A stretch of DNA of 64,000 nt, taken from positions 1 to 64,000 of IMG/VR virus record IMGVR_UViG_3300003876_000001; one strand, written 5' to 3'. A program made the translations under genes and the position numbers. This document shows positions 7,267 to 37,042 of this stretch, piece after piece. How positions within the stretch are numbered: the first letter of the stretch is position 1; each line of letters begins with the position of its first letter. Source of the stretch: an uncultured virus (IMG/VR IMGVR_UViG_3300003876_000001) (lineage: Duplodnaviria > Heunggongvirae > Uroviricota > Caudoviricetes). The notes below the pieces were generated by a model, which did no database searches, was not told the origin of the DNA, and saw only the letters and a list, made by a program, of their open reading frames with translations.

Positions 7267-10200
7267 TTATCCACATTTACTATTACCACATGATACACAT
7301 GTAAGGCAACCTTCTTTATATTCTAAATTATCTGACCCACAATTTGGACATGTACCATTTCCCTTTTCACCATCATTGATGTATTTTTTTATTACTCTAG
7401 CTACACCATTCTTCCAAGTATTTAAATGTTCATCATTTAAGTTAAGTGATTGTATTAAATCTAATACATAGATTATTGGCATACCATGACGTAATACTGA
7501 ACTAATCATTTTAGCATAGTTCCAATATTCTTCATTGAATGTATGATTTAATCCTGTATGTACAGCTTTTTCACCATTAGAATCAACATATTCAATATCA
7601 TATCTTTTAATACCATTTTCATCTCTTACTTTAACAACTTCACATTCAATAAGACTTGTAGGTAATTCAGATAAACCATTTTGCATACGACCAGTAAAAA
7701 CTTCATATGGTCTTCCATCCATCATACCAACAACACCAATCCATTTTTCAAGATTATTTTGAAATCTTATAATTTCAGCTTTTAATCTTTTAGGTCTTTT
7801 AGGTGCATGATTATCTTTAAATAACTTATCTTTTTCTTTCTTTTTCTTTTCTGTTTCAGTAACTAAAACACCAGAACGTGAACCATCACGATAAACAGTA
7901 ATTCCTTTACATCCATGTTTCCAACCAGCTTCATATACATTAGCAACTGTTTCTTCAGTTACATCATTAGGGAGATTTACAGTAACTGATATTGAATGAT
8001 CAATATGTTTTTGAACCATTCCTTGCATTTCTACTTTTTTAACCCAATCAACATCATTAGATGTTGCACCGTAATATGGTGAAAGTTTAACTAATTCGTT
8101 AATTTGATCTGAAGTATAGTGTTCAATAATATCTTCAACATCGTAACCATTAACTTCTAACCAAGTAACAAAATTATGATGAAATACTGGATATTCCATC
8201 CAAGTATCACCTAATTCATCGGTAAAATCAACTCTAACGTTTTTATCATTTGGATTTATTTTTCTTCTTCTAGTATAATAAACTAAGAACACAGGTTCAA
8301 TACCTGATGTAGTTTGAGTCATAATAGATACTGTACCCGTAGGTGCTATTGTAAGTAGTGCTAGATTACGTCTACCATACATTACCATCATATCATATAG
8401 ATCAGAGTCTTCGTCTTTTATACGTTGAATAAATGGATTATTTAATTCTCTTTCAGTATCATACATTGGGAAAGCACCTCTATCTCTTGCCATATATACT
8501 GATGAACGATATGCTTCAAGTTTTAATTGTTTATGTACTTCTTCTGAAAATTTATTAGCTTCGTCAGTACCATATGTTAAACCTAATGCAGCTAACATAT
8601 CACCTTCTGCTGTAATACCTAATCCTGTTCTACGACCTCTTTCTGCTTTATCTTTAATACTAACCCAAAGATTTCTTTCGGTTTCTCTAATGTGTAAATC
8701 TTCTGGATCGGAATCTATTTTAGCTAATATTTTATCTATTTTTTCTAATTCAAGATCAATAATATCATCCATTAATTTTTCAGCAATTCTAACATCTATT
8801 TTAAAAGATTCCCAATCAAAAAAAGCATTATCAGTAAATGGATTTACAACGTAACCAAATAAATTAATAGCTAATAATCTACAACTATCATTTGCACATA
8901 AAGGAATTTCACCACAATTATGTGTACTAATCCCATTTGCATCAAATTCATTTTTATCGGGGATTTGACAATCATAAACATTCTCAACACCAACATATTC
9001 AATAGATTTAATAGTATCAACAAATCTTTCTCTATATAACCCCCTATCTAAATTATTTAAAGCATTTTTTAATTTATTTTTTTTACTATTTTCAATAAAA
9101 TTTATTTCCTCTTGGAAGATTAATAGATTATCCTTAGATATTGATAACTCATGTTGTGACTTTGTTTTATACATTTTATACCCACCATTACCATCGGGCA
9201 TTTTTTTATATTGTTCTTCTCTTCTATTTTCATAAACGGTTGAGATAATACCAATTTTAGATAACATTCTTTGTGCCACATATAAATTTTCCAAAATTGA
9301 TGATGCTAGTCTAACGTTAACACCCTTTTCAATATTATTATTTACAGTTCCATCAGCATCAAACCACCCACATAAGAATCCCTTATAAAACTTACTACTT
9401 GCTTTTTCTATTTTATTGTTAATTCTTTTATCATTTAAAACACCATATTCGTATGATAATTTTTTTAAATTAACACTTTTAACTTGTTCGATTTCTAAAT
9501 CATCTTTAGAGTTACCCAAATCCAATCTATATTTTAAATTATTTTTTATACATTCAATAGCATAATTTTTAGTTTCTTTTCTATCTTCACCCCAATATCT
9601 TAAAATTGCGGATTCATTATCGAATGTTCCATCACCTAATAAACTTCCAATTAACCAACCTTCTTCAAAATTTCCTTCTCCATTCCAATTCATCCCAATA
9701 TTGTTGTTAAGATTAATAGTATCACCAATTTGAAAGTTTTTTAATTCAGTCCATTTATATTTCTTATCATTTCTATTTATTTCAAGTACTTGTTTAAATT
9801 CATGATTATCTGTTGACTTTATTTTAAATCCTTTTTTTGTAGTTATTTGAAAAACATCTCTATTTTCACCTGTTATAAAAAAACCTTTATCTGTCGATGA
9901 ATAAAAACCACCATCGACCATTGCGATGAATTTAACACCAATCAATTCTTCAACAGTTTTATTACCTTTATCTGTCATTATGTTCGAATCTAAAGTAAGA
10001 CAAGGGTTTGTTGATATTGTTTTAAAACCTAAATCACTATAACAATCAGGAACAGATTCATTAATTAAAGTATCCCAATATAAAATACCCGGTTCTGCCT
10101 TATCCCATGCATTATGGATAATTTTTTTCCATATTTTAGATGCATTAACTTCTTTAGTAAATGTTGGATTATTAGAATTTATTGGATATTGTTGTGTATA

Positions 10201-10929
10201 GGTTGTGCCTTGTGTAGCAGCTTCCATAAAATCATCATCAATTTTAACCGATACATTTGCACCTGTTACTTTAGTACCATCTAATTTGGCATCAATAAAT
10301 GCTTCAGCATCTGGGTGTTTAATTGAAATAGATTCCATTAAAGCACCACGTCTACCATCTTGTGCAACTTCTCTTGTTGTATTTGAGAACCTTTCCATAA
10401 ATGGAACGATACCTGTTGATGTTAATGCAGAATTTTTTACAGGTGAACCTTCAGGTCTTATAAAAGATAAATCTACACCAACACCTGCTCTTCTTTTTTG
10501 TAGTTGTGCAATTTCCTGATCTAATTTAAAAATACCACCATATGAATCTGCTTCATTTTCATTACCAATTACAAAACAATTTGAGATGGATACAATTTGA
10601 AAATCATTTCCAATGCCTGACATTGGTGAACCTTGTGGAACTATTTTCTTAAAATGTTTGATTTTTTCGTATATTTCTTCAGCGAATAAAGGGTTTGTAT
10701 ATTTCTTTTCTATTCTTGCTAATTCTTTTGCTAATCTCCAATGCATATCATCAGGAGTTTTTTCGTAAAGATTACCATCTGAATCTTTTAAACAGTATTT
10801 GTTTATCCAAACTTCTGTTGCTAAATTATCGCCATTAAAATAGGCTAATGTGGCTTCGTGAATTTCATCTCTTGTATATTTAGAATATACTTTACCCTCT
10901 TTAGGTTGTTCTTCTAAAGTTTCTTCCAT
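7267..10929 (-). CDS. nrdJ: Class II (AdoCbl-dependent) ribonucleotide reductase with intein
   Basis: SNCFV, TNP|CGE, TIAPTGT, KGITVYRDGSR, C-terminal Zn ribbon. Confidence 0.93.
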   Translation of the reverse strand: MEETLEEQPKEGKVYSKYTRDEIHEATLAYFNGDNLATEVWINKYCLKDSDGNLYEKTPDDMHWRLAKELARIEKKYTNPLFAEEIYEKIKHFKKIVPQGSPMSGIGNDFQIVSISNCFVIGNENEADSYGGIFKLDQEIAQLQKRRAGVGVDLSFIRPEGSPVKNSALTSTGIVPFMERFSNTTREVAQDGRRGALMESISIKHPDAEAFIDAKLDGTKVTGANVSVKIDDDFMEAATQGTTYTQQYPINSNNPTFTKEVNASKIWKKIIHNAWDKAEPGILYWDTLINESVPDCYSDLGFKTISTNPCLTLDSNIMTDKGNKTVEELIGVKFIAMVDGGFYSSTDKGFFITGENRDVFQITTKKGFKIKSTDNHEFKQVLEINRNDKKYKWTELKNFQIGDTINLNNNIGMNWNGEGNFEEGWLIGSLLGDGTFDNESAILRYWGEDRKETKNYAIECIKNNLKYRLDLGNSKDDLEIEQVKSVNLKKLSYEYGVLNDKRINNKIEKASSKFYKGFLCGWFDADGTVNNNIEKGVNVRLASSILENLYVAQRMLSKIGIISTVYENRREEQYKKMPDGNGGYKMYKTKSQHELSISKDNLLIFQEEINFIENSKKNKLKNALNNLDRGLYRERFVDTIKSIEYVGVENVYDCQIPDKNEFDANGISTHNCGEIPLCANDSCRLLAINLFGYVVNPFTDNAFFDWESFKIDVRIAEKLMDDIIDLELEKIDKILAKIDSDPEDLHIRETERNLWVSIKDKAERGRRTGLGITAEGDMLAALGLTYGTDEANKFSEEVHKQLKLEAYRSSVYMARDRGAFPMYDTERELNNPFIQRIKDEDSDLYDMMVMYGRRNLALLTIAPTGTVSIMTQTTSGIEPVFLVYYTRRRKINPNDKNVRVDFTDELGDTWMEYPVFHHNFVTWLEVNGYDVEDIIEHYTSDQINELVKLSPYYGATSNDVDWVKKVEMQGMVQKHIDHSISVTVNLPNDVTEETVANVYEAGWKHGCKGITVYRDGSRSGVLVTETEKKKKEKDKLFKDNHAPKRPKRLKAEIIRFQNNLEKWIGVVGMMDGRPYEVFTGRMQNGLSELPTSLIECEVVKVRDENGIKRYDIEYVDSNGEKAVHTGLNHTFNEEYWNYAKMISSVLRHGMPIIYVLDLIQSLNLNDEHLNTWKNGVARVIKKYINDGEKGNGTCPNCGSDNLEYKEGCLTCVSCGNSKCG
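8917..10002 (-). mobile_element. Intein (362 aa) with LAGLIDADG endonuclease in nrdJ
   Basis: Starts CLTLDS after TNP and ends THN before CGE; internal LIGSLLGDG and FLCGWFDADG. Confidence 0.92.
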
Positions 10930-14405: not shown

Positions 14406-14439
14406 AAAAAAACCCTGACTCATTTCTGAATCAGGGTTT
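14406..14439 (-). terminator. Attenuator terminator ahead of tRNA-Tyr/Lys operon
   Basis: AAACCCTGATTCA-gaaa-TGAGTCAGGGTTT plus T-tract. Confidence 0.85.
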
Positions 14440-14461
14440 CTATATTTTAAACTTTATGGCT

Positions 14462-14545
14462 TTAGCCACCAAAGTTAGTACATAGAATACCTGATCCAGT
14501 ATCTGGATAGTTTTTATATTTCTTATATGTATTAACTTTTGTCAT
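14462..14545 (-). CDS. Putative attenuation leader peptide MTKVNTYKKYKNYPDTGSGILCTNFGG
   Basis: 27-aa ORF with TAT AAG AAA TAT AAA AAC TAT run, followed by antiterminator, terminator and tRNA-Tyr/Lys. Confidence 0.75.
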   Translation of the reverse strand: MTKVNTYKKYKNYPDTGSGILCTNFGG

Positions 14546-15081: not shown

Positions 15082-16179
15082 CTAATTTTCATACCCATCT
15101 CTAAATGGTGTTGACCAGTCTGGTTTAATCATTTTCCAAATTGCTTCAGAATAATTTTTATTATTATACATAGAAAATAATAATCCAGAATGTTTAAATT
15201 CTTTTGCTATTAAAGCAAATTCTTTCTTTCTTTCAAAAGGATCAAATCCATTTTTCAAACTAACTAAATTAGTTACCCTAACGAATTCACGTAATGTTTC
15301 AACTTCAATTTCAATATACATATCATTTAAACCCTTTTCAGTACGTCTAACCCAATTGTAGAATTCATCAGGAACTCTATCAATAACTTCATCCAATCCT
15401 TCACCATTTTTCAATGATTCCCAAATTGTCTTATTAGATACGTTAGTAACGATTCTATGTAATCTGCAATATTCATCGAATTTTACTTTTACACGGAAGC
15501 CATTAGAATAACGTACAACAAATCCTTCTTTGTTATCTTCTTCTAATTCCTTTAATTTAGAAATATCAGATGTTACATCATACTTTTCAACAATAGTAAA
15601 TTCATCAGAGTGATTATACACCATATCATCATATGACATTTCATCACCACCATCAGTATTGATAACACCTAAAAGAACCAAATCTTCAGTCTTACCATAA
15701 TCAATAACAATACGATTTTCAGGATATATAATTTCAAATACATATGTATTATCACCATTTAAAAATCTATAAGAATTTTCAATATTAAGCATGATTTCAC
15801 CACCTTTAATGGCTTGTTCTGATTCAAATGAACCTCTTGAAGCAAATATCCAATCACCTTCATAATTAAATAAAATACCCAATGAACCATCCATTTTTTC
15901 AAATGCTTCAAATGATAAATCAGTTGGAATATCAGAAGGATCGTGTTCTTCTAAATTGAAGAATTTTTTCATGCTTCGACCAACAATATTACCATCGATG
16001 TCAACAAAAAGTCCACGACAAGATAATGTAATTAAATCCCATTCCTTTTCAAATGCACATGTTTTAGAATAATTTAGAACCCATATATCTTTAGTTGGGT
16101 GTTTATTAGTAATTAATAAACCCTTTTCAATATATTCATTAATAACACTCCATTCTATTTTAGTAAGTATTTTTTCCAT
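15082..16179 (-). CDS. rnlA: T4 RNA ligase 1-like (RnlA)
   Basis: CRGL, KKFFN, EKMDGSLG, SRGSF, FEII, EGFVV, KVKFDEY. Confidence 0.9.
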   Translation of the reverse strand: MEKILTKIEWSVINEYIEKGLLITNKHPTKDIWVLNYSKTCAFEKEWDLITLSCRGLFVDIDGNIVGRSMKKFFNLEEHDPSDIPTDLSFEAFEKMDGSLGILFNYEGDWIFASRGSFESEQAIKGGEIMLNIENSYRFLNGDNTYVFEIIYPENRIVIDYGKTEDLVLLGVINTDGGDEMSYDDMVYNHSDEFTIVEKYDVTSDISKLKELEEDNKEGFVVRYSNGFRVKVKFDEYCRLHRIVTNVSNKTIWESLKNGEGLDEVIDRVPDEFYNWVRRTEKGLNDMYIEIEVETLREFVRVTNLVSLKNGFDPFERKKEFALIAKEFKHSGLLFSMYNNKNYSEAIWKMIKPDWSTPFRDGYEN

Positions 16180-23502: not shown

Positions 23503-23592
23503 ATAGTTTTACGTCTGCTCGGTGACCGTTATACTATATCACTAGAGCAGAATTAATCTCTTGTTCACTTTCAAATATGTTGTTAATTCTGT

Positions 23593-23808
23593 TCATTTTC
23601 TTATTATTTTAACTATTTCTTTACTATTAATTATTGTGCACTTTGCACTTATTTCTTTTATTCTTCTTTTAGGTATATCATAATGATCTTTATGAAACCA
23701 ACATCTTTTGATGTTTAAATCATCAGCCATCAAATGTAGGTTCTCTTTTGAATAAGGAACACACACTAAATGTCTTTGTTCATCACAATAATATTTCAAG
23801 TTCAACAT
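23593..23808 (-). CDS. Small protein, DUF4031-like
   Basis: LHLMA..L.IKRCWFH..HYDI pattern. Confidence 0.5.
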   Translation of the reverse strand: MLNLKYYCDEQRHLVCVPYSKENLHLMADDLNIKRCWFHKDHYDIPKRRIKEISAKCTIINSKEIVKIIRK

Positions 23809-26982: not shown

Positions 26983-27223
26983 TTTGTTAACATATCCGTT
27001 TGATCTGCACCTATTCTTTCGAAGGTCACACCCACATGTATACCAATTCCATCATACCATAATTTTGTGCCATATTGGGGACTCGAACCCATAATAGGAA
27101 ATTACCCCTATGTTAAATGATTAATGCCAATTATCGCTAGTGACTAATAGTTTCCACGATATTTCAATGCATTATACTTTATCGTTTTCACTTCATTCCA
27201 TTACAGCATATTTTTTTAGGTCT

Positions 27224-27342
27224 TCAAGTAATAAGGAATTTAACCTTAATCCTTTACTTCTGTTGCCAACCTATTGTCACCATACTAATAGGCTATCGTT
27301 GGTCGGTACATGGAAGTATCGTGCACATTACACCATACTTTA
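27224..27342 (-). ncRNA. tRNA-like element with 52-nt anticodon loop
   Basis: D-like GTGTAATGTGCAC, stem TACTTC/GAAGTA, T-like TAAGGTTAAATTCCTTA. Confidence 0.4.
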
Positions 27343-27352
27343 ATGACCAGTG

Positions 27353-27424
27353 CGGAACATAGGGGAATCGAACCCCTACCCTATGAGTGATAGTCATATA
27401 TCCTAGCCGTTAGACCAATGCTCC
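27353..27424 (-). tRNA. tRNA-Asp with ATC anticodon
   Basis: TATGA-CTATCAC-TCATA; GGAGCAT/ATGTTCC, G73. Confidence 0.8.
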
Positions 27425-28380: not shown

Positions 28381-28383
28381 TTG

Positions 28384-28454
28384 CCGTCCATGAGGGAATC
28401 AAACCCTCGGCAATCGGGAGACAACCGATCATGTTATCATTACACCAATGGACG
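28384..28454 (-). tRNA. tRNA-Asp(GTC)
   Basis: ATCGG-TTGTCTC-CCGAT; G73. Confidence 0.82.
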
Positions 28455-28718: not shown

Positions 28719-28841
28719 ACCACTAGGTAGGACTCGAACCTACAAGGGATGTCCCACATGTTACCATGCAGCAGGGGTTTTCTATAACCCCTACAAACCA
28801 CCTTCAACGGTGATAGTGTATACCTGTTCCACCACTAACAA
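28719..28841 (-). tRNA. Atypical 123-nt tRNA with multi-hairpin variable region
   Basis: Leu-like D arm, ATCAC/GTGGT stem with 8-nt loop, three V hairpins, GTAGGTTCGAGTCCTAC. Confidence 0.55.
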
Positions 28842-30016: not shown

Positions 30017-30151
30017 ATATATTTGCTTATCACGGACAATACACACGACATGTATTTGTTCGAAGCCACCATTATAGTGCTGCCGTCAAGAGTCTCTGCT
30101 CTCTCTTCACAAATAATTTTTTAATAAACAATACGTCAAATAACTTTATTG

Positions 30152-30221
30152 TGGATACTGTCGGAATCGAACCGAAACGTTTGGTATGCAAAACCAACGA
30201 CCTGCCTTTAGCATCAGACCC
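30152..30221 (-). tRNA. tRNA-Ala(TGC), irregular acceptor/D arm
   Basis: TTGGT-TTTGCAT-ACCAA; G3.U70. Confidence 0.7.
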
Positions 30222-30223
30222 AT

Positions 30224-30367
30224 TTACTTTTTAATCACTTCAAAATACTTATCAATCTTTTTATCGACTTCTTCTTTTGTTTTACCTTGGCTGCAAATTG
30301 CTGGTACATCTTTTATGTACGCAAATACTACACCCTTTTCTTTATCTTCAATATAAACTCTTATCAT
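30224..30367 (-). CDS. 47-aa HicB-like (antitoxin N-terminal domain) protein, absent from ORF track
   Basis: MIRVYIEDKEKGVVFAYIKDVPAICSQGKTKEEV. Confidence 0.6.
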   Translation of the reverse strand: MIRVYIEDKEKGVVFAYIKDVPAICSQGKTKEEVDKKIDKYFEVIKK

Positions 30368-30389: not shown

Positions 30390-30416
30390 AAAAAACCCAA
30401 TCTGTTAGGATTGGGT
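30390..30416 (-). terminator. Attenuator terminator ahead of tRNA-Ala/Glu/Val/Asp operon
   Basis: ACCCAATC-ctaaca-GATTGGGT plus T-tract. Confidence 0.85.
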
Positions 30417-30444
30417 CTTCAATTTCGTTTGGATGTTTTAGTAG

Positions 30445-30532
30445 TTAAACTAATTCACCTTCTCCTGAAGACCCTAGACACAAATCGTCCACCTCAACTG
30501 CTTCCGCAACTAATTGTTCTTGAATTCTTCAT
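30445..30532 (-). CDS. Putative leader peptide ...IQEQLVAEAVEVDDLCLGSSGEGELV (1 nt out of frame with the ATG)
   Basis: Nine consecutive GNN codons at 30510..30484; antiterminator GGGTCTTCA at 30474..30466. Confidence 0.6.
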
Positions 30533-32716: not shown

Positions 32717-33039
32717 TAATAATACTCTTCTAAATCTTTCATATAATCAAAATTTTTAGGTACTTCTTTTAATAGTTTATGATAAAATTCGTTATCAATA
32801 TTACCTAAAATTTCCCATTCAACAGTAGAACATAACATATCATGTGCTCTATACTCATAATTTTCATCAGTCATATATCCAAATTCGATAGCATCAAATT
32901 TAGCTTCAAATTTATTGTAAAGTATTACACAAGGATAGTTATCACCATATCCTAGAATATCACCTTCTTTAATTTCATTACCACATTTAGTATATGTACA
33001 AAGAGTCGAATCACCTTTCTTCAGTCTATTTAATATCAT
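32716..33039 (-). CDS. YopX-like protein
   Basis: GNEIKEGDIL and WEILGNI. Confidence 0.55.
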   Translation of the reverse strand: MILNRLKKGDSTLCTYTKCGNEIKEGDILGYGDNYPCVILYNKFEAKFDAIEFGYMTDENYEYRAHDMLCSTVEWEILGNIDNEFYHKLLKEVPKNFDYMKDLEEYY

Positions 33040-33077
33040 ACGGCAAATATATTAAATAATATTAATAATATCAAGGA

Positions 33078-33533
33078 TTATCCTAAAAATGGTTGAATTA
33101 AACTTTCAATTAGTCTTTTATATAACTCATTATTTTTTTCTACCCACCCCATTTTGATTTGATCACCAGCTTTAGAAAATAATTTAATGTCAAAATTTTC
33201 AAAATTTATTTTATCGTTTTCTTGATCACCATCAATAAATAAAATTAAATCATAATCTTTTTCATCAAACGTATATGTTAATTCAATTTCTAATTCAATA
33301 TTTTCAGTATCATTATTAACATTAGTTTCTTTATTTACAAATGTTGATGAAAATTTCTTGAATTTATTTTTATCACTTAGGCTTGTGATAATATCTTTAA
33401 TTAAATTTGTTTGGAATTCTTTTGAGTTAAGAAGATTATTATGTTCGAATTCGTCTTTAACACCTGTCATACCTAAAAAATCAAATTCAGACAGTTCTTC
33501 ATTGATTACTCTATATAGTTCTTTTCTTTTCAT
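33078..33533 (-). CDS. Hypothetical protein
   Basis: 151-aa ORF preceded by TATTTATA. Confidence 0.6.
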   Translation of the reverse strand: MKRKELYRVINEELSEFDFLGMTGVKDEFEHNNLLNSKEFQTNLIKDIITSLSDKNKFKKFSSTFVNKETNVNNDTENIELEIELTYTFDEKDYDLILFIDGDQENDKINFENFDIKLFSKAGDQIKMGWVEKNNELYKRLIESLIQPFLG

Positions 33534-33586
33534 AAAATCTTTATTATAAATACATTATAGTTTAATAAAAATAAATTTTAAATTTT

Positions 33587-33617
33587 TGTAACCAAAACCT
33601 AAAGTACTACGTATTTA
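33587..33617 (+). promoter_or_regulatory. Phage promoter TGTAAC-N17-CGTATTTA
   Basis: Recurrent motif upstream of the Pro/Gln/His leader. Confidence 0.65.
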
Positions 33618-33788
33618 TTAGCAAGAAAGCGAAGTTATCGCTTAAACGTTTAAGTTAAGTCTTTAAAAAAGAAAAGAAAATAGCTTCTCCCTAGTGTAAT
33701 AACTGAGGGTAGGTAAAAGTTTTTTGCAAAATGACTTGTTTATTTAAATTATATGTATTATAATTGCGTTGAATTAAAAAATAGAACA

Positions 33789-33872
33789 ATGAAAAGATTA
33801 GTTAACATAGTAGGTCAACCCCAACCGCAGCATCAACATCAGATGTTGAACGGGGAGAATATGTCTAGTTAA
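33789..33872 (+). CDS. Putative attenuation leader peptide MKRLVNIVGQPQPQHQHQMLNGENMSS
   Basis: 27-aa ORF with CAA CCC CAA CCG CAG CAT CAA CAT CAG run, followed by antiterminator, terminator and tRNA-Pro/Gln/His. Confidence 0.8.
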   Translation: MKRLVNIVGQPQPQHQHQMLNGENMSS

Positions 33873-33897
33873 CTATTGTAATTATAATAATTAATAG

Positions 33898-33932
33898 AAC
33901 CCTGTTCACATCAAAATGAACAGGGTTTTTTT
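33898..33932 (+). terminator. Attenuator terminator ahead of tRNA-Pro/His/Gln operon
   Basis: AACCCTGTTCA-catcaaaa-TGAACAGGGTT plus T-tract. Confidence 0.87.
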
Positions 33933-33977
33933 ATGTTCATACTTTTGTAAAACGTTACAAATTTTAATATTAAATAT

Positions 33978-34053
33978 CTAGGTGCGATCCATGAGGTGTG
34001 GTTGCTCGACTTGGAATCGAGATTATTTACAGGTTCAACTCCTGTCACTTAGA
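33978..34053 (+). tRNA. tRNA-Pro(TGG)
   Basis: CTCGA-CTTGGAA-TCGAG; C1-G72, A73. Confidence 0.82.
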
Positions 34054-34079
34054 CTTATTGTTCTTTGATTTATTAATAT

Positions 34080-34155
34080 CGGGTAATGGACTAATCAGGT
34101 AAGTCGCTTCGTTTGGGACGAAGACATCATGGGGGTTCGATTCCCTCTTACCCGA
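34080..34155 (+). tRNA. tRNA-Pro(TGG)
   Basis: CTTCG-TTTGGGA-CGAAG; CGGGTAA/TTACCCG. Confidence 0.9.
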
Positions 34156-34169
34156 CTTATAACTTTTCA

Positions 34170-34236
34170 TATATGAAAGGTAGCATTGTCGGGTCGTGAC
34201 CCCGAAGGTATGGATTCGATTTCCATTAAACACCCA
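34170..34236 (+). pseudogene. tRNA-His(GTG)-like, 5' acceptor strand missing
   Basis: TCGGG-TCGTGAC-CCCGA; ATGGA-TTCGATT-TCCAT. Confidence 0.55.
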
Positions 34237-34239
34237 TAT

Positions 34240-34312
34240 TGACTTATTGTATAACGGTTTATTACGCCAAATTTTGAATTTGGAGATTCTGGTTCGATTC
34301 CAGATAGGTCAG
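34240..34312 (+). tRNA. tRNA-Gln(TTG)
   Basis: CCAAA-TTTTGAA-TTTGG; T1-A72, G73. Confidence 0.9.
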
Positions 34313-34317
34313 CAAAT

Positions 34318-34390
34318 GGTGTTCGTAGTATAACGGTAAACACGCTTGATTGTGATTCAAGTAATGCCTGTTCGATTCTGGTCGAACACC
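34318..34390 (+). tRNA. tRNA-His(GTG)
   Basis: CTTGA-TTGTGAT-TCAAG; G-1/C73. Confidence 0.9.
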
Positions 34391-34398
34391 CAAAATAT

Positions 34399-34469
34399 TC
34401 CCATATGGGGTAATAGTAACTCGCAACACTTTGAATGTTGAGCCATAGGAGCGTAACCTATTATGGGTG
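34399..34469 (+). tRNA. tRNA-Gln(TTG), atypical T loop
   Basis: CAACA-CTTTGAA-TGTTG; T loop AGCGTAA. Confidence 0.78.
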
Positions 34470-34479
34470 CAAATAAATA

Positions 34480-34758
34480 TTGATTGAAAATTCAGAATAT
34501 AGACACACTTCCAATTTAAAAGAAAGATTATATAAAGAAGGTTTAAAAAAACGTGAATGTGAATTATGTGGACAAGGTGAAGAATGGAGAGGAAAAAAAA
34601 TGAGTCTAATTCTTGATCATATTAATGGAACGAATAATGATAATAGGATTAAAAACCTAAGAATTGCATGTCCAAATTGTAATGCAACATTAGATACACA
34701 TTGTGGAAAAAATAAAAATTCAAGAGGTACTAAAAGAATCATCAATAACAAAAAATAA
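34480..34758 (+). CDS. HNH endonuclease (C-terminal domain)
   Basis: CELCG, LDHING..DNR..NLR..CPNC. Confidence 0.8.
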   Translation: MIENSEYRHTSNLKERLYKEGLKKRECELCGQGEEWRGKKMSLILDHINGTNNDNRIKNLRIACPNCNATLDTHCGKNKNSRGTKRIINNKK

Positions 34759-34945
34759 ACACATTCCATGATCTTCAGTAACCCATCCTAAATCAGTCAT
34801 ACGATTGACTAACTTAGGTGCTATAAACATTCTACCTTTCATTATTTCTTGATATGCATTATGTTTTTTGAAGTCTTTTGAAAAAAAGACTTTCTTGATT
34901 TCCTTTTTAGTTTTCTAGGAATTCTCTTAGGATTTTTTATTGCTT

Positions 34946-37042
34946 TCATTCCATTATGCTTGGAGCAGGACTTTTTGGTCTTACAAGTTCATATTTAGTT
35001 TCAAAATGATTAAATTTATCGTGTAAATTATAATATTTTTCTAAGTCTTTATTATCAACATTATAATTTAATCTATCTAAAACTTCAATTATTTGTTCCT
35101 TTTTCATTTGAGAATTTTGGGATAGATATTTTGATAATTCTATTAATAATATTTTATTTTCATTTAAACACTTTTCGGCTTCTTTATAACATTCATTAAC
35201 CCAAGTTTTTGCCTCAATATCTGTTGCTTGAGTATCTTTAAATTCATTATATTGTGTTGGTGCATTAGGAATACCAAATGCACTATTTTCAGATAACATA
35301 CCATATCTTTGTGCTGCAATTAATGCATTATTAGTTGCTCTTACTAAATCACTTTCAGAACCACTAGATTGGAAATCTTCACCAAAAATCATTTTTTCAG
35401 CAATCATCCCACTTAATGATACAATAATATCATTTTCATACCAAGTTTTTAAATGCATACTAGGTTGTTTTGAATTAGTAAATGCATTATCACTTTCACT
35501 TGTTTTACTTACAATAACTTGTGGAATGATACCCATTATTAACATACACGTTACTGCATGTCCACTTTCATGTACAGCATTTAATAATTGAATCTCACTA
35601 CCATCAGATTTTCTTCTATTTTCTAATTTTAGTTTAACATCATATTTTTTATTTAATATGGTTTTATTTTTATGAACAAAATCAATAATATGATAAGCAT
35701 CTTCATCATATTCAAAAGACCAATTTATTTGATCCACATCTTTACTAGAAATAGCAATATCCAATGTAATTTTACTCATTGTTGATTCAATCATTGAATT
35801 GATTGTTGTAAATACTGGTCTTGTTCCTAATGTTGGAAATACACCTTCTTTATATAGGATGTCATTAATAGAATCATCGAAATTAACATCAATTTCAAAT
35901 CTTTCCATTATATCATTTTTTACTCTATTTAATTCTAGATTAATTAAATCTCTATATGTTTGAGAACTAAATGCTTTGTAAATAATATGATTATTTCCCA
36001 ATCTACCTATTTGTTCAACTCTAAATCTGGTTTTTAATGATGCTTTAATTTCACTTAAACCGATTGATAATGAATGTTTATGGAAATCATCTGCATTATT
36101 ATCTGGTGAAACTTGTGATGTCATTTGATATGCTTCATCTAAATTACCTATAATGAATATACAAGATTTAGTATAATCATATAATCTAGGTTTAAAGACT
36201 ACTTTTAATTTTAACTCTAATAAATCGATAGTTTGTTTTGCATTTAAATTTTTAAATGCTTCATATATTAAATTTTCAGAATAATATTCATCATTAAAAC
36301 AATTCTTCATTGAATAAATATATGATGATGGTATAACGAAGTTTTCAGGTATGCTACTTCTTTTTACCATTTTTTTATTAGAACCACTACCTGTTGTTTG
36401 AGGTTCGGCTATTTCTTCTTCTTCAACTTCATCATCAAGATCAAAAATATCTTTAAATTTATTTAATCCTTTTGTAATAATACCATTTTCAACTTCAACA
36501 CCTTCATTAACACATTTTTCTAATTTATAAACAAATCTCATTATTTCACCACCAGACCAACTATAATCAATGTGTTCCAATTTACCAGAATCAAGTAAAT
36601 CCCATATAACCCTTAATCCTGATTTTTGAACTTCAGCACCATTTTCATCGATAGTTCTACCTAATTGGAATTCATCAAACATTACAGCAACAGGTTTATT
36701 TTCTTTATCTTTTAAATCTCTACTGAAAACATGTGATAATGAACCATCACCCTGACCAGCATAATCACCAACATTAAATTTATATATAATGTCGTCTAAA
36801 TTAATATGTTTAAACATAGCTTGAACTAGTGATGTTTTACCAACACCAGTTAAACCCCATAAATTAATAATAGTTGGTCTTATTTGACCTTCTGGAAATA
36901 GATACCAAGATTGAATATCATCTAATAGTTCATCTATTACATCATCAATACCAACAAATTCTTTTTTTAAATTTATTTTAGCATTATTTAGAATTTCTTT
37001 TTTTTCAAGAATTTCTCTTTTTTTCTCTTTTAATATTTTCAT
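34946..37042 (-). CDS. AAA+ ATPase fused to M41-type Zn peptidase
   Basis: GLTGVGKT, MFDEFQ, HESGH, LSGMIAE, SGSESDL..AT. Confidence 0.82.
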   Translation of the reverse strand: MKILKEKKREILEKKEILNNAKINLKKEFVGIDDVIDELLDDIQSWYLFPEGQIRPTIINLWGLTGVGKTSLVQAMFKHINLDDIIYKFNVGDYAGQGDGSLSHVFSRDLKDKENKPVAVMFDEFQLGRTIDENGAEVQKSGLRVIWDLLDSGKLEHIDYSWSGGEIMRFVYKLEKCVNEGVEVENGIITKGLNKFKDIFDLDDEVEEEEIAEPQTTGSGSNKKMVKRSSIPENFVIPSSYIYSMKNCFNDEYYSENLIYEAFKNLNAKQTIDLLELKLKVVFKPRLYDYTKSCIFIIGNLDEAYQMTSQVSPDNNADDFHKHSLSIGLSEIKASLKTRFRVEQIGRLGNNHIIYKAFSSQTYRDLINLELNRVKNDIMERFEIDVNFDDSINDILYKEGVFPTLGTRPVFTTINSMIESTMSKITLDIAISSKDVDQINWSFEYDEDAYHIIDFVHKNKTILNKKYDVKLKLENRRKSDGSEIQLLNAVHESGHAVTCMLIMGIIPQVIVSKTSESDNAFTNSKQPSMHLKTWYENDIIVSLSGMIAEKMIFGEDFQSSGSESDLVRATNNALIAAQRYGMLSENSAFGIPNAPTQYNEFKDTQATDIEAKTWVNECYKEAEKCLNENKILLIELSKYLSQNSQMKKEQIIEVLDRLNYNVDNKDLEKYYNLHDKFNHFETKYELVRPKSPAPSIME

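Follow-up and report, generated by a model that had tools for sequence, protein, structure and literature searches.

A leader ORF and a terminator precede a block of Pro, His and Gln tRNA genes

The stretch of DNA analysed here (the window) comprises the first 64 kb of a 139-kb IMG/VR record of an uncultured virus (IMGVR_UViG_3300003876_000001; 28% G+C, completeness estimate 42%), and the element in question is a putative ribosome-mediated transcription attenuator on its plus strand, lying directly before a block of transfer RNA (tRNA) genes for Pro, His and Gln. The phage of the window is also represented by a complete contig of 325,854 bp (G001), in which the leader region is identical and the product of a neighbouring gene, 698 residues long, is 100% identical at the protein level. 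The element begins with a short open reading frame (ORF) of 27 codons plus stop (33789–33872, with the ATG at 33789 and the stop codon at 33870–33872), which occupies the 5′ leader on the same strand as the tRNA genes and upstream of them. Nine consecutive Gln, Pro and His codons, claimed for this region in the initial annotation, are indeed present at 33816–33842 as codons 10–18 of the ORF. Pro, Gln and His account for 9 of 25 leader residues where 1.9 are expected, and six-frame translation of the 139-kb record yields two runs of nine or more such codons, compared with a longest run of four to five in 20 shuffled genomes. The regulatory codons are thus enriched for the very amino acids to which the downstream genes are tied. 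Between the leader ORF and the tRNA genes lies an intrinsic terminator (33898–33932), made up of a 5′ arm (segment 3, 33900–33912), a 3′ arm (segment 4, 33917–33925) and a T run (33926–33932). A terminator scan places here a 13-pair stem (33896–33929) followed by the T run, and returns three terminator-like sites in 2 kb against 0.6 expected.

The block itself opens with two tRNA-Pro genes (both TGG), at 33978–34054 (called by ARAGORN) and 34080–34156 (ARAGORN and Rfam). These are followed by the 3′ part of a tRNA-His (GTG; about 34179–34235), by tRNA-Gln (TTG; 34240–34313) and tRNA-His (GTG; 34319–34391), both found by ARAGORN and Rfam, and by a last tRNA (34399–34469) that Rfam matches with 44.5 bits, that ARAGORN leaves uncalled, and whose anticodon loop, read from the sequence, is that of a Gln tRNA (TTG). 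The cluster therefore holds Pro, Gln and His tRNAs only, as had been proposed, in the order Pro, Pro, His, Gln, His, Gln, and the piece previously described as His-like turns out to be the remainder of a tRNA-His gene that is whole in G001. Relative to G001, the record carries a deletion of 62 nucleotides (nt) between short direct repeats (34170–34180) which removes the 5′ part of this gene. An HNH endonuclease ORF (34480–34758; ORF list and domain search) ends the block, and the next gene is on the opposite strand. The genes presumed to be regulated are therefore six tRNA genes and an HNH endonuclease ORF, and not genes for amino-acid biosynthesis or aminoacyl-tRNA synthetases.

The leader RNA can form mutually exclusive helices

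The RNA from 33772 to 33940 folds with a z-score of −6.4, and none of 200 shuffled sequences folds as well. In the minimum-energy structure without a ribosome, segment 1 (33819–33834), which lies within the regulatory codons, is paired with segment 2 (33842–33855), and the terminator is formed; the 1:2 hairpin, an anti-antiterminator, thereby takes in the regulatory codons. With a ribosome mask on 33804–33834 and the RNA ending at 33914, the minimum-energy fold is instead a 13-pair antiterminator between segment 2 and segment 3, which consumes the 5′ arm of the terminator. A ribosome placed on segment 2 or at the stop codon lets the terminator form in constrained folds. The proposal that 33842–33855 can pair with 33900–33912 and so exclude the terminator is thus borne out by constrained folding, with masked early codons giving the antiterminator and a ribosome-free RNA the 1:2 hairpin plus terminator. 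The 5′ strand of the antiterminator is placed where it can be controlled by the position of a ribosome on the leader.

Homologues conserve the frame and both competing helices

Viral and metagenome contigs were searched with a degenerate pattern for codons 1–12 of the leader, which matched 14 stretches in the former and 24 in the latter. All 38 matches are short ORFs of this leader family, 29 of them distinct, and every one retains the start codon, the frame and a stop that follows segment 2 at a fixed distance. All 28 copies that are long enough have the terminator, 27 of the 28 have an antiterminator duplex with an energy of −10 kcal/mol or better, and in all 28 at least five of eight bases in segment 2 pair back onto Pro or Gln codons. 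In the covariation alignment (A5, 28 rows), 219 of 224 cells of the antiterminator helix are paired (97.8%; best slid control 63.8%), and three pairs, amounting to 10 cells, have changed on both sides. For the terminator helix the figures are 95.1% (best slid control 63.4%), with five pairs and 15 cells changed on both sides. None of 500 shuffles reaches the covariation score of either helix, so both helices covary among the homologues, and one column of segment 3 covaries with both of its partners, in segment 2 and in segment 4.

The composition of the leader is conserved as well: 138 of the 197 codons left free by the search pattern encode Pro, Gln or His, compared with a background of about 8%. 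An excess of third-position variation within the first 12 codons was discarded as circular, because the pattern had fixed the first and second codon positions. ARAGORN finds tRNAs downstream on the same strand at 36 of the 38 loci, and all those with an assigned identity are Pro, His or Gln (two have none assigned); of the two remaining loci, one ends 127 nt past the ATG and the other duplicates a locus whose first tRNA is at +970. In all 25 copies that could be measured, the first downstream tRNA is a tRNA-Pro. The distance from the T run to this gene is at most 15 nt in nine of these copies, which leaves no room for a separate promoter; it is at most 60 nt in 15 copies and exceeds 100 nt in 10.

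Leaders of other tRNA blocks are spelled in the amino acids of their own block

Are such leaders confined to the Pro/His/Gln block? Two further complete jumbo phage contigs, G003 (362,603 bp; about 40% G+C in the loci read) and G004 (327,676 bp), were reached via a promoter-like motif common to tRNA-block leaders; a search with this motif gave 52 stretches, for the most part chance matches, and served as a route to these two genomes. Each of them has a homologous leader before a Pro/His/Gln block, and each of the three complete genomes contains four leader/terminator units in all, consisting of the promoter-like motif, a short ORF starting with Met-Lys or Met-Thr, a terminator and a tRNA block. 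The four block types are Pro/His/Gln, Tyr/Lys, a large block (Thr, Gly, Ile, Asn, Phe, Ser and Arg, with or without Leu, Trp and Cys) and an Ala/Glu-type block (Ala, Glu, Val, Asp and Leu, with or without Met and Trp).

When every leader is scored against every block, the true pairing ranks first of 24 in each of the three genomes. For the large block, 32 of 39, 37 of 40 and 33 of 37 leader residues match the leader's own block. Across the 12 leaders and 20 amino acids there are 60 cases in which a block contains a tRNA for a given amino acid, and in each of them the leader of that block includes at least one codon for that amino acid. The match follows changes between genomes: tRNA-Trp belongs to the large block in G003 and to the Ala/Glu block in G001 and G004, and the Trp codon moves along between these two leader families; likewise, the large block of G004 lacks tRNA-Leu and its leader lacks a Leu codon. 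An extra Trp codon is found in the Pro/His/Gln leader of G004, inside segment 2. The choice of Leu codons also tracks the isoacceptors, being CTN where the block has tag, aag or gag anticodons and TTR where it has taa or caa, with CTN/TTR counts of 4/1 in one leader family and 1/8 in the other (Fisher p = 0.023). In nine of the 12 units, fewer than 1% of shuffles give an antiterminator duplex as good.

Two of the other units lie on the minus strand of the window. The Tyr/Lys unit (14406–14545) has a Tyr- and Lys-rich leader ORF at 14545–14462 and a terminator at 14436–14406, directly before tRNA-Tyr (14396–14315) and three tRNA-Lys genes. The Ala/Glu-type unit (30390–30532) has a leader at 30532–30445 rich in codons for Ala, Glu, Val, Asp, Leu, Met and Trp, a terminator at 30415–30390, and tRNAs for Ala, Glu, Leu, Val, Trp, Asp and Met beyond it. 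Its leader ORF is intact in G001 and broken in the record by a 32-nt deletion (within 30445–30532); this deletion and that of 62 nt in the tRNA-His gene may be either strain variants or assembly errors. Two small ORFs near tRNA genes, one before tRNA-Glu in the window (23534–23596) and one in G004 (L068), were considered as leader units and rejected, as both lack a terminator.

A gene for a T4 RnlA-type RNA ligase (15082–16179, minus strand; Pfam RNA_lig_T4_1, with an NCBIfam match under the cut-off) adjoins the Tyr/Lys block and its leader. In T4, this type of ligase mends tRNA cut by anticodon nuclease. Separately, a related 12-kb contig (G002) carries a 14-codon ORF, and a terminator near-identical to that in the window (L007, 1727–1831), before a gene for a non-discriminating aspartyl-tRNA synthetase. 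Here a phage synthetase gene may be under attenuation, but the composition of the leader is unconvincing.

A model for control of tRNA synthesis by decoding

The ORF, the three alternative helices, the covariation of the helices and the match between leader and tRNA identities are established by computation. On this basis we consider it likely that the element is a ribosome-mediated transcription attenuator, governing read-through from a short leader transcript into the Pro, Pro, His, Gln, His, Gln tRNA block. A leader-peptide attenuator with a terminator-excluding antiterminator is also what the initial annotation had seen here, and its computable parts hold: the pairings are exclusive, both helices covary, the 1:2 hairpin is found in 28 of 28 copies and leaders match their tRNAs in four families.

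In the model, transcription would start shortly before 33789 and a ribosome would translate the 27-codon leader. With Gln-, Pro- and His-tRNAs in plentiful supply, the ribosome would pass the nine regulatory codons smoothly, segment 2 would be covered or re-paired with segment 1, the terminator would form and RNA polymerase would halt 46 nt upstream of the first tRNA. Scarcity of one or more of the three aminoacyl-tRNAs would make the ribosome stall on the early regulatory codons and keep segment 1 open, and the freed segment 2 would pair with the emerging 5′ arm of the terminator, blocking termination and allowing the tRNA genes to be transcribed. The aminoacyl-tRNAs sensed would be products of the genes controlled, resulting in a direct negative-feedback loop on decoding capacity. 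The physiological signal would seem to be tRNA supply rather than amino-acid supply, and a shortage could arise from a codon mismatch with the host, from loss of host tRNA synthesis or from host anticodon nucleases. Each tRNA block would be governed by its own leader, spelled in that block's amino acids. We also favour, with less assurance than for the single attenuator, the broader proposal that large phages run a modular decoding-stress circuit in which every tRNA block sits behind a codon-matched attenuator, decoding is measured block by block and only the tRNAs in short supply are topped up.

A number of observations weigh against the attenuator and have to be set beside the evidence for it. 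In the full-length RNA the terminator state (−42.0 kcal/mol) is far more stable than the forced antiterminator (−26.3 kcal/mol), so that the switch must be kinetic; a choice between helices as they emerge, as in classical attenuators, is what the folding would predict. Because a stall at the last regulatory codons would leave part of segment 2 under the ribosome, signalling is limited to the earlier codons. The CCCC provided by Pro codons is needed to pair with the GGGG of segment 2, making the leader composition partly structural. The covariation stems from few independent changes among related rows, and the homologue pattern itself fixes part of the leader. The antiterminator is weak in three of the 12 leader units of the three genomes. 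Among the 10 of 25 copies with more than 100 nt between terminator and first tRNA, some have a promoter-like motif or an ORF in the gap, and part of the tRNA expression may bypass the attenuator there. No Shine-Dalgarno sequence precedes the leader ATG, though this is compatible with a host from the Bacteroidota, and both the translation of the leader and the promoter of its transcript are predictions from sequence.

A further point of this kind is that stalling reports aminoacyl-tRNA, so amino-acid starvation would open the switch too. The natural signal of a leader-peptide attenuator might then be starvation, or the general speed of translation, with the link to tRNAs doing no more than coupling output to amino-acid demand. 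The ribosome senses aminoacyl-tRNA, which is lowered in both situations, and the architecture equals that of amino-acid operon attenuators; extra tRNA, on the other hand, gives no relief from amino-acid starvation. The presence of all 60 tRNA identities of the 12 blocks in their own leaders, and of Leu codon families that follow the isoacceptors of the block, fits the sensing of tRNA species better than that of amino acids, and we regard starvation as an improbable natural signal.

It could also be that there is no switch at all. The ORF would then be an ordinary tiny gene or a chance frame, the hairpin a constitutive and possibly leaky terminator or an element for pre-tRNA processing or stability, and the codon composition a by-product of structural needs. 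Such a view gains from the Pro codons that supply the C run pairing with segment 2 and from the much greater stability of the terminator state. It fits poorly with 11 measured leader ORFs that differ in length by multiples of three only, with the covariation that links segment 3 to both segment 2 and segment 4, and with a composition match that recurs in three other leader families, of unrelated sequences and amino-acid sets, and tracks tRNA changes between genomes; we hold it to be very improbable. Least probable of all is a translation-independent, T-box-like RNA sensor, in which uncharged tRNAs or a protein would bind the codon run and stabilise the antiterminator, for even if T-boxes likewise choose between terminator and antiterminator, and the codon run is single-stranded only once the 1:2 hairpin opens, neither the window at gathering threshold nor 33560–33980 at E up to 10 has a T-box or riboswitch match, the start codon, frame and fixed-distance stop are kept in 38 of 38 copies, and the up to ten amino acids in one leader would be unreadable by a specifier-type contact.

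Comparison with known attenuators

Leader-peptide attenuation as such is well known. The his (hisL), trpL, pheL and leuL leaders are single-amino-acid attenuators with Rfam families, and the element predicted here resembles them in its short leader with a run of regulatory codons, its alternative 1:2, 2:3 and 3:4 hairpins, its intrinsic terminator before the regulated genes and its presumed kinetic choice by ribosome position. Those leaders read one amino acid and control bacterial amino-acid biosynthesis genes, whereas the phage leader would read three and precedes tRNA genes, and there is no similarity in sequence or to the covariance models. At gathering score, Rfam matches in the whole window are to tRNAs only, with no His_leader, Trp_leader, Leu_leader, Thr_leader or similar; with the limit relaxed to E = 10, the 15 matches listed for 33560–33980 include none of these leader families and are all far under their cut-offs. 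The T-box model (specifier loop and T-box sequence) likewise gives no match in the window at gathering score nor in 33560–33980 at E up to 10. Multivalent attenuators are known too, namely the thr leader (Thr and Ile) and the ilvGMEDA and ilvBN leaders (Leu, Val and Ile). They share with the phage leader the codons for several amino acids, and a stall at any of these leads to read-through, as is predicted for the phage leader; their sets follow shared biosynthetic pathways, whereas those described here follow the downstream tRNA genes and extend to ten amino acids per leader.

Other leaders act on synthetase genes. The pheST attenuator of E. coli (pheM leader) is a case of leader-peptide attenuation of a synthetase operon. 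PMC2965389 describes a leader with His codons upstream of hisS/hisZ paralogues in bacilli. Both resemble the proposed phage attenuator in that leader-peptide attenuation acts on part of the translation apparatus and responds to the cognate aminoacyl-tRNA, and differ in that the synthetase is regulated there and the tRNA itself would be here. T-box riboswitches likewise respond to the state of one particular tRNA by selecting a terminator or an antiterminator, but do so by direct tRNA binding without translation, and their targets are synthetase, transport and biosynthesis genes.

To our knowledge, all leader-peptide attenuators described so far regulate amino-acid biosynthesis or synthetase genes. 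A full-text literature search, with thin coverage of subscription journals and of the older phage literature including that on T5, found no leader-peptide attenuation of tRNA genes, nor did term searches for such control within PMC10264068, PMC7824862, PMC2965389, PMC4810235 and PMC7412058; a search of PMC10264068 for leaders, attenuation or terminators met with no mention of them. Phage T5 was considered as a precedent and set aside: short ORFs do exist among its tRNA genes, but there is no terminator before a tRNA and no clear composition match.

The reason for tRNA genes in phages has been a matter of debate for some fifty years, with codon compensation, substitution for host tRNAs that have been degraded and evasion of defences that target tRNA among the proposals. 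PMC10264068 and PMC11464382 deal with the last of these. If the attenuator is real, each tRNA block has a sensor that turns it on when its own codons are read slowly, which would make tRNA supply demand-driven and would reduce the question of phage tRNAs to a simple assay of which stress opens which leader. Leader-peptide attenuation would then reach beyond metabolic genes to the decoding machinery itself and to viruses, and compact, codon-specific reporters of tRNA availability would be on offer. Should the modular circuit be correct, no earlier case would exist of tRNA genes being controlled via translation of their own codons. The comparative signal is unusually clean, with four leader families, three complete genomes and 29 distinct copies of the Pro/His/Gln element, making this locus well suited as a template for experiments and for a systematic survey.

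Promoter and host

Where might the leader transcript start? A possible promoter lies at 33736–33766 on the plus strand, consisting of TTG, a 20-nt spacer and an 8-mer one base off TAnnTTTG, and has its end 22 nt upstream of the ATG; the nearest relative (L098) conserves it. An exact TAnnTTTG, which we take to be a promoter box, is found 26–77 nt before the ATG in nine of 11 family members inspected; the two without it are the window's phage (in its G001 copy) and L098, which have the 8-mer one base off in its place. A scan for sigma-70-type promoters found 12, with 12.0 expected and no excess over shuffles. The putative promoter-like motif GTAACC-N14-TACGTATTTA mentioned above is found further upstream (33588–33617, plus strand; 171 nt before the ATG) and is common to several tRNA-block leaders of this phage and its relatives. 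Between this motif and the likely promoter, 33618–33730 contains two hairpins and a T run, conserved in L098, and may represent a small RNA or a second regulatory layer. At three relatives' loci (L074, L076 and L081), a promoter-like GTAAC motif or an inserted ORF lies directly 3′ of the attenuator terminator; transcription of the tRNAs at these loci may have a second point of entry that escapes attenuation.

The phage is T4-like, with a gp23 capsid protein, a gp20 portal and a T4-type terminase. T4 relies on host RNA polymerase, which obeys intrinsic terminators; the window's phage, being T4-like, probably uses the host enzyme too, and its terminators would be obeyed. The nearest cultured phages by major capsid protein are the Flavobacterium 'immuto' phages, at 41% identity over part of the protein, and tRNA-Pro shares 85% identity with its counterpart in a Cellulophaga phage. 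Together with the lack of a Shine-Dalgarno sequence and the TAnnTTTG boxes, these relationships make a member of the Bacteroidota the probable host. In the one 'immuto'-type record checked (NC_055915.1), which has four annotated tRNAs of which Rfam finds three, no leader-like ORF was seen in a stretch with three of the four, the scope being that stretch and not the one before the fourth, a tRNA-Cys. A tblastn search with the leader for cultured relatives gave chance-level matches only, and blastn of 33000–36000 against phage records gave short tRNA or HNH matches only. Among the sequencing runs listed as containing the stretch, none is on record as RNA. When the stretch was compared with the contigs of four runs, only partial and divergent matches were obtained, from two sediment runs, and none from a possible source run; this comparison has no bearing on expression or on the deletions.

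Other features of the phage genome

The number of tRNA genes is large throughout, with 50 Rfam matches in G001 and 22 tRNAs called by ARAGORN in the window. All three jumbo phages have a tRNA with the anticodon CTA, which reads TAG (L006, 918–988, in G001; L063, 2721–2793, minus strand, in G003; L065, 977–1048, minus strand, in G004), a hint that amber suppression or recoding of stop codons may occur in some of the genome. On the minus strand of the window, a tRNA-Asp with the anticodon ATC, having A at position 34, lies at 27352–27424, and a normal GTC copy at 28383–28454. The Pro/His/Gln block is adjoined by a gene for an FtsH-like protein with AAA ATPase and M41 peptidase domains (34946–37042, minus strand), and elsewhere the gene for the large subunit of ribonucleotide reductase (7267–10929, minus strand) has an intein with a LAGLIDADG domain inside it. 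Finally, several tRNA-like stretches, some apparently interrupted, are called by neither ARAGORN nor Rfam (30150–30225, 28720–28790 and 27100–27340 in the window and 3840–4140 in L062, all on the minus strand), and these may be degenerate or intron-bearing tRNAs within the blocks.

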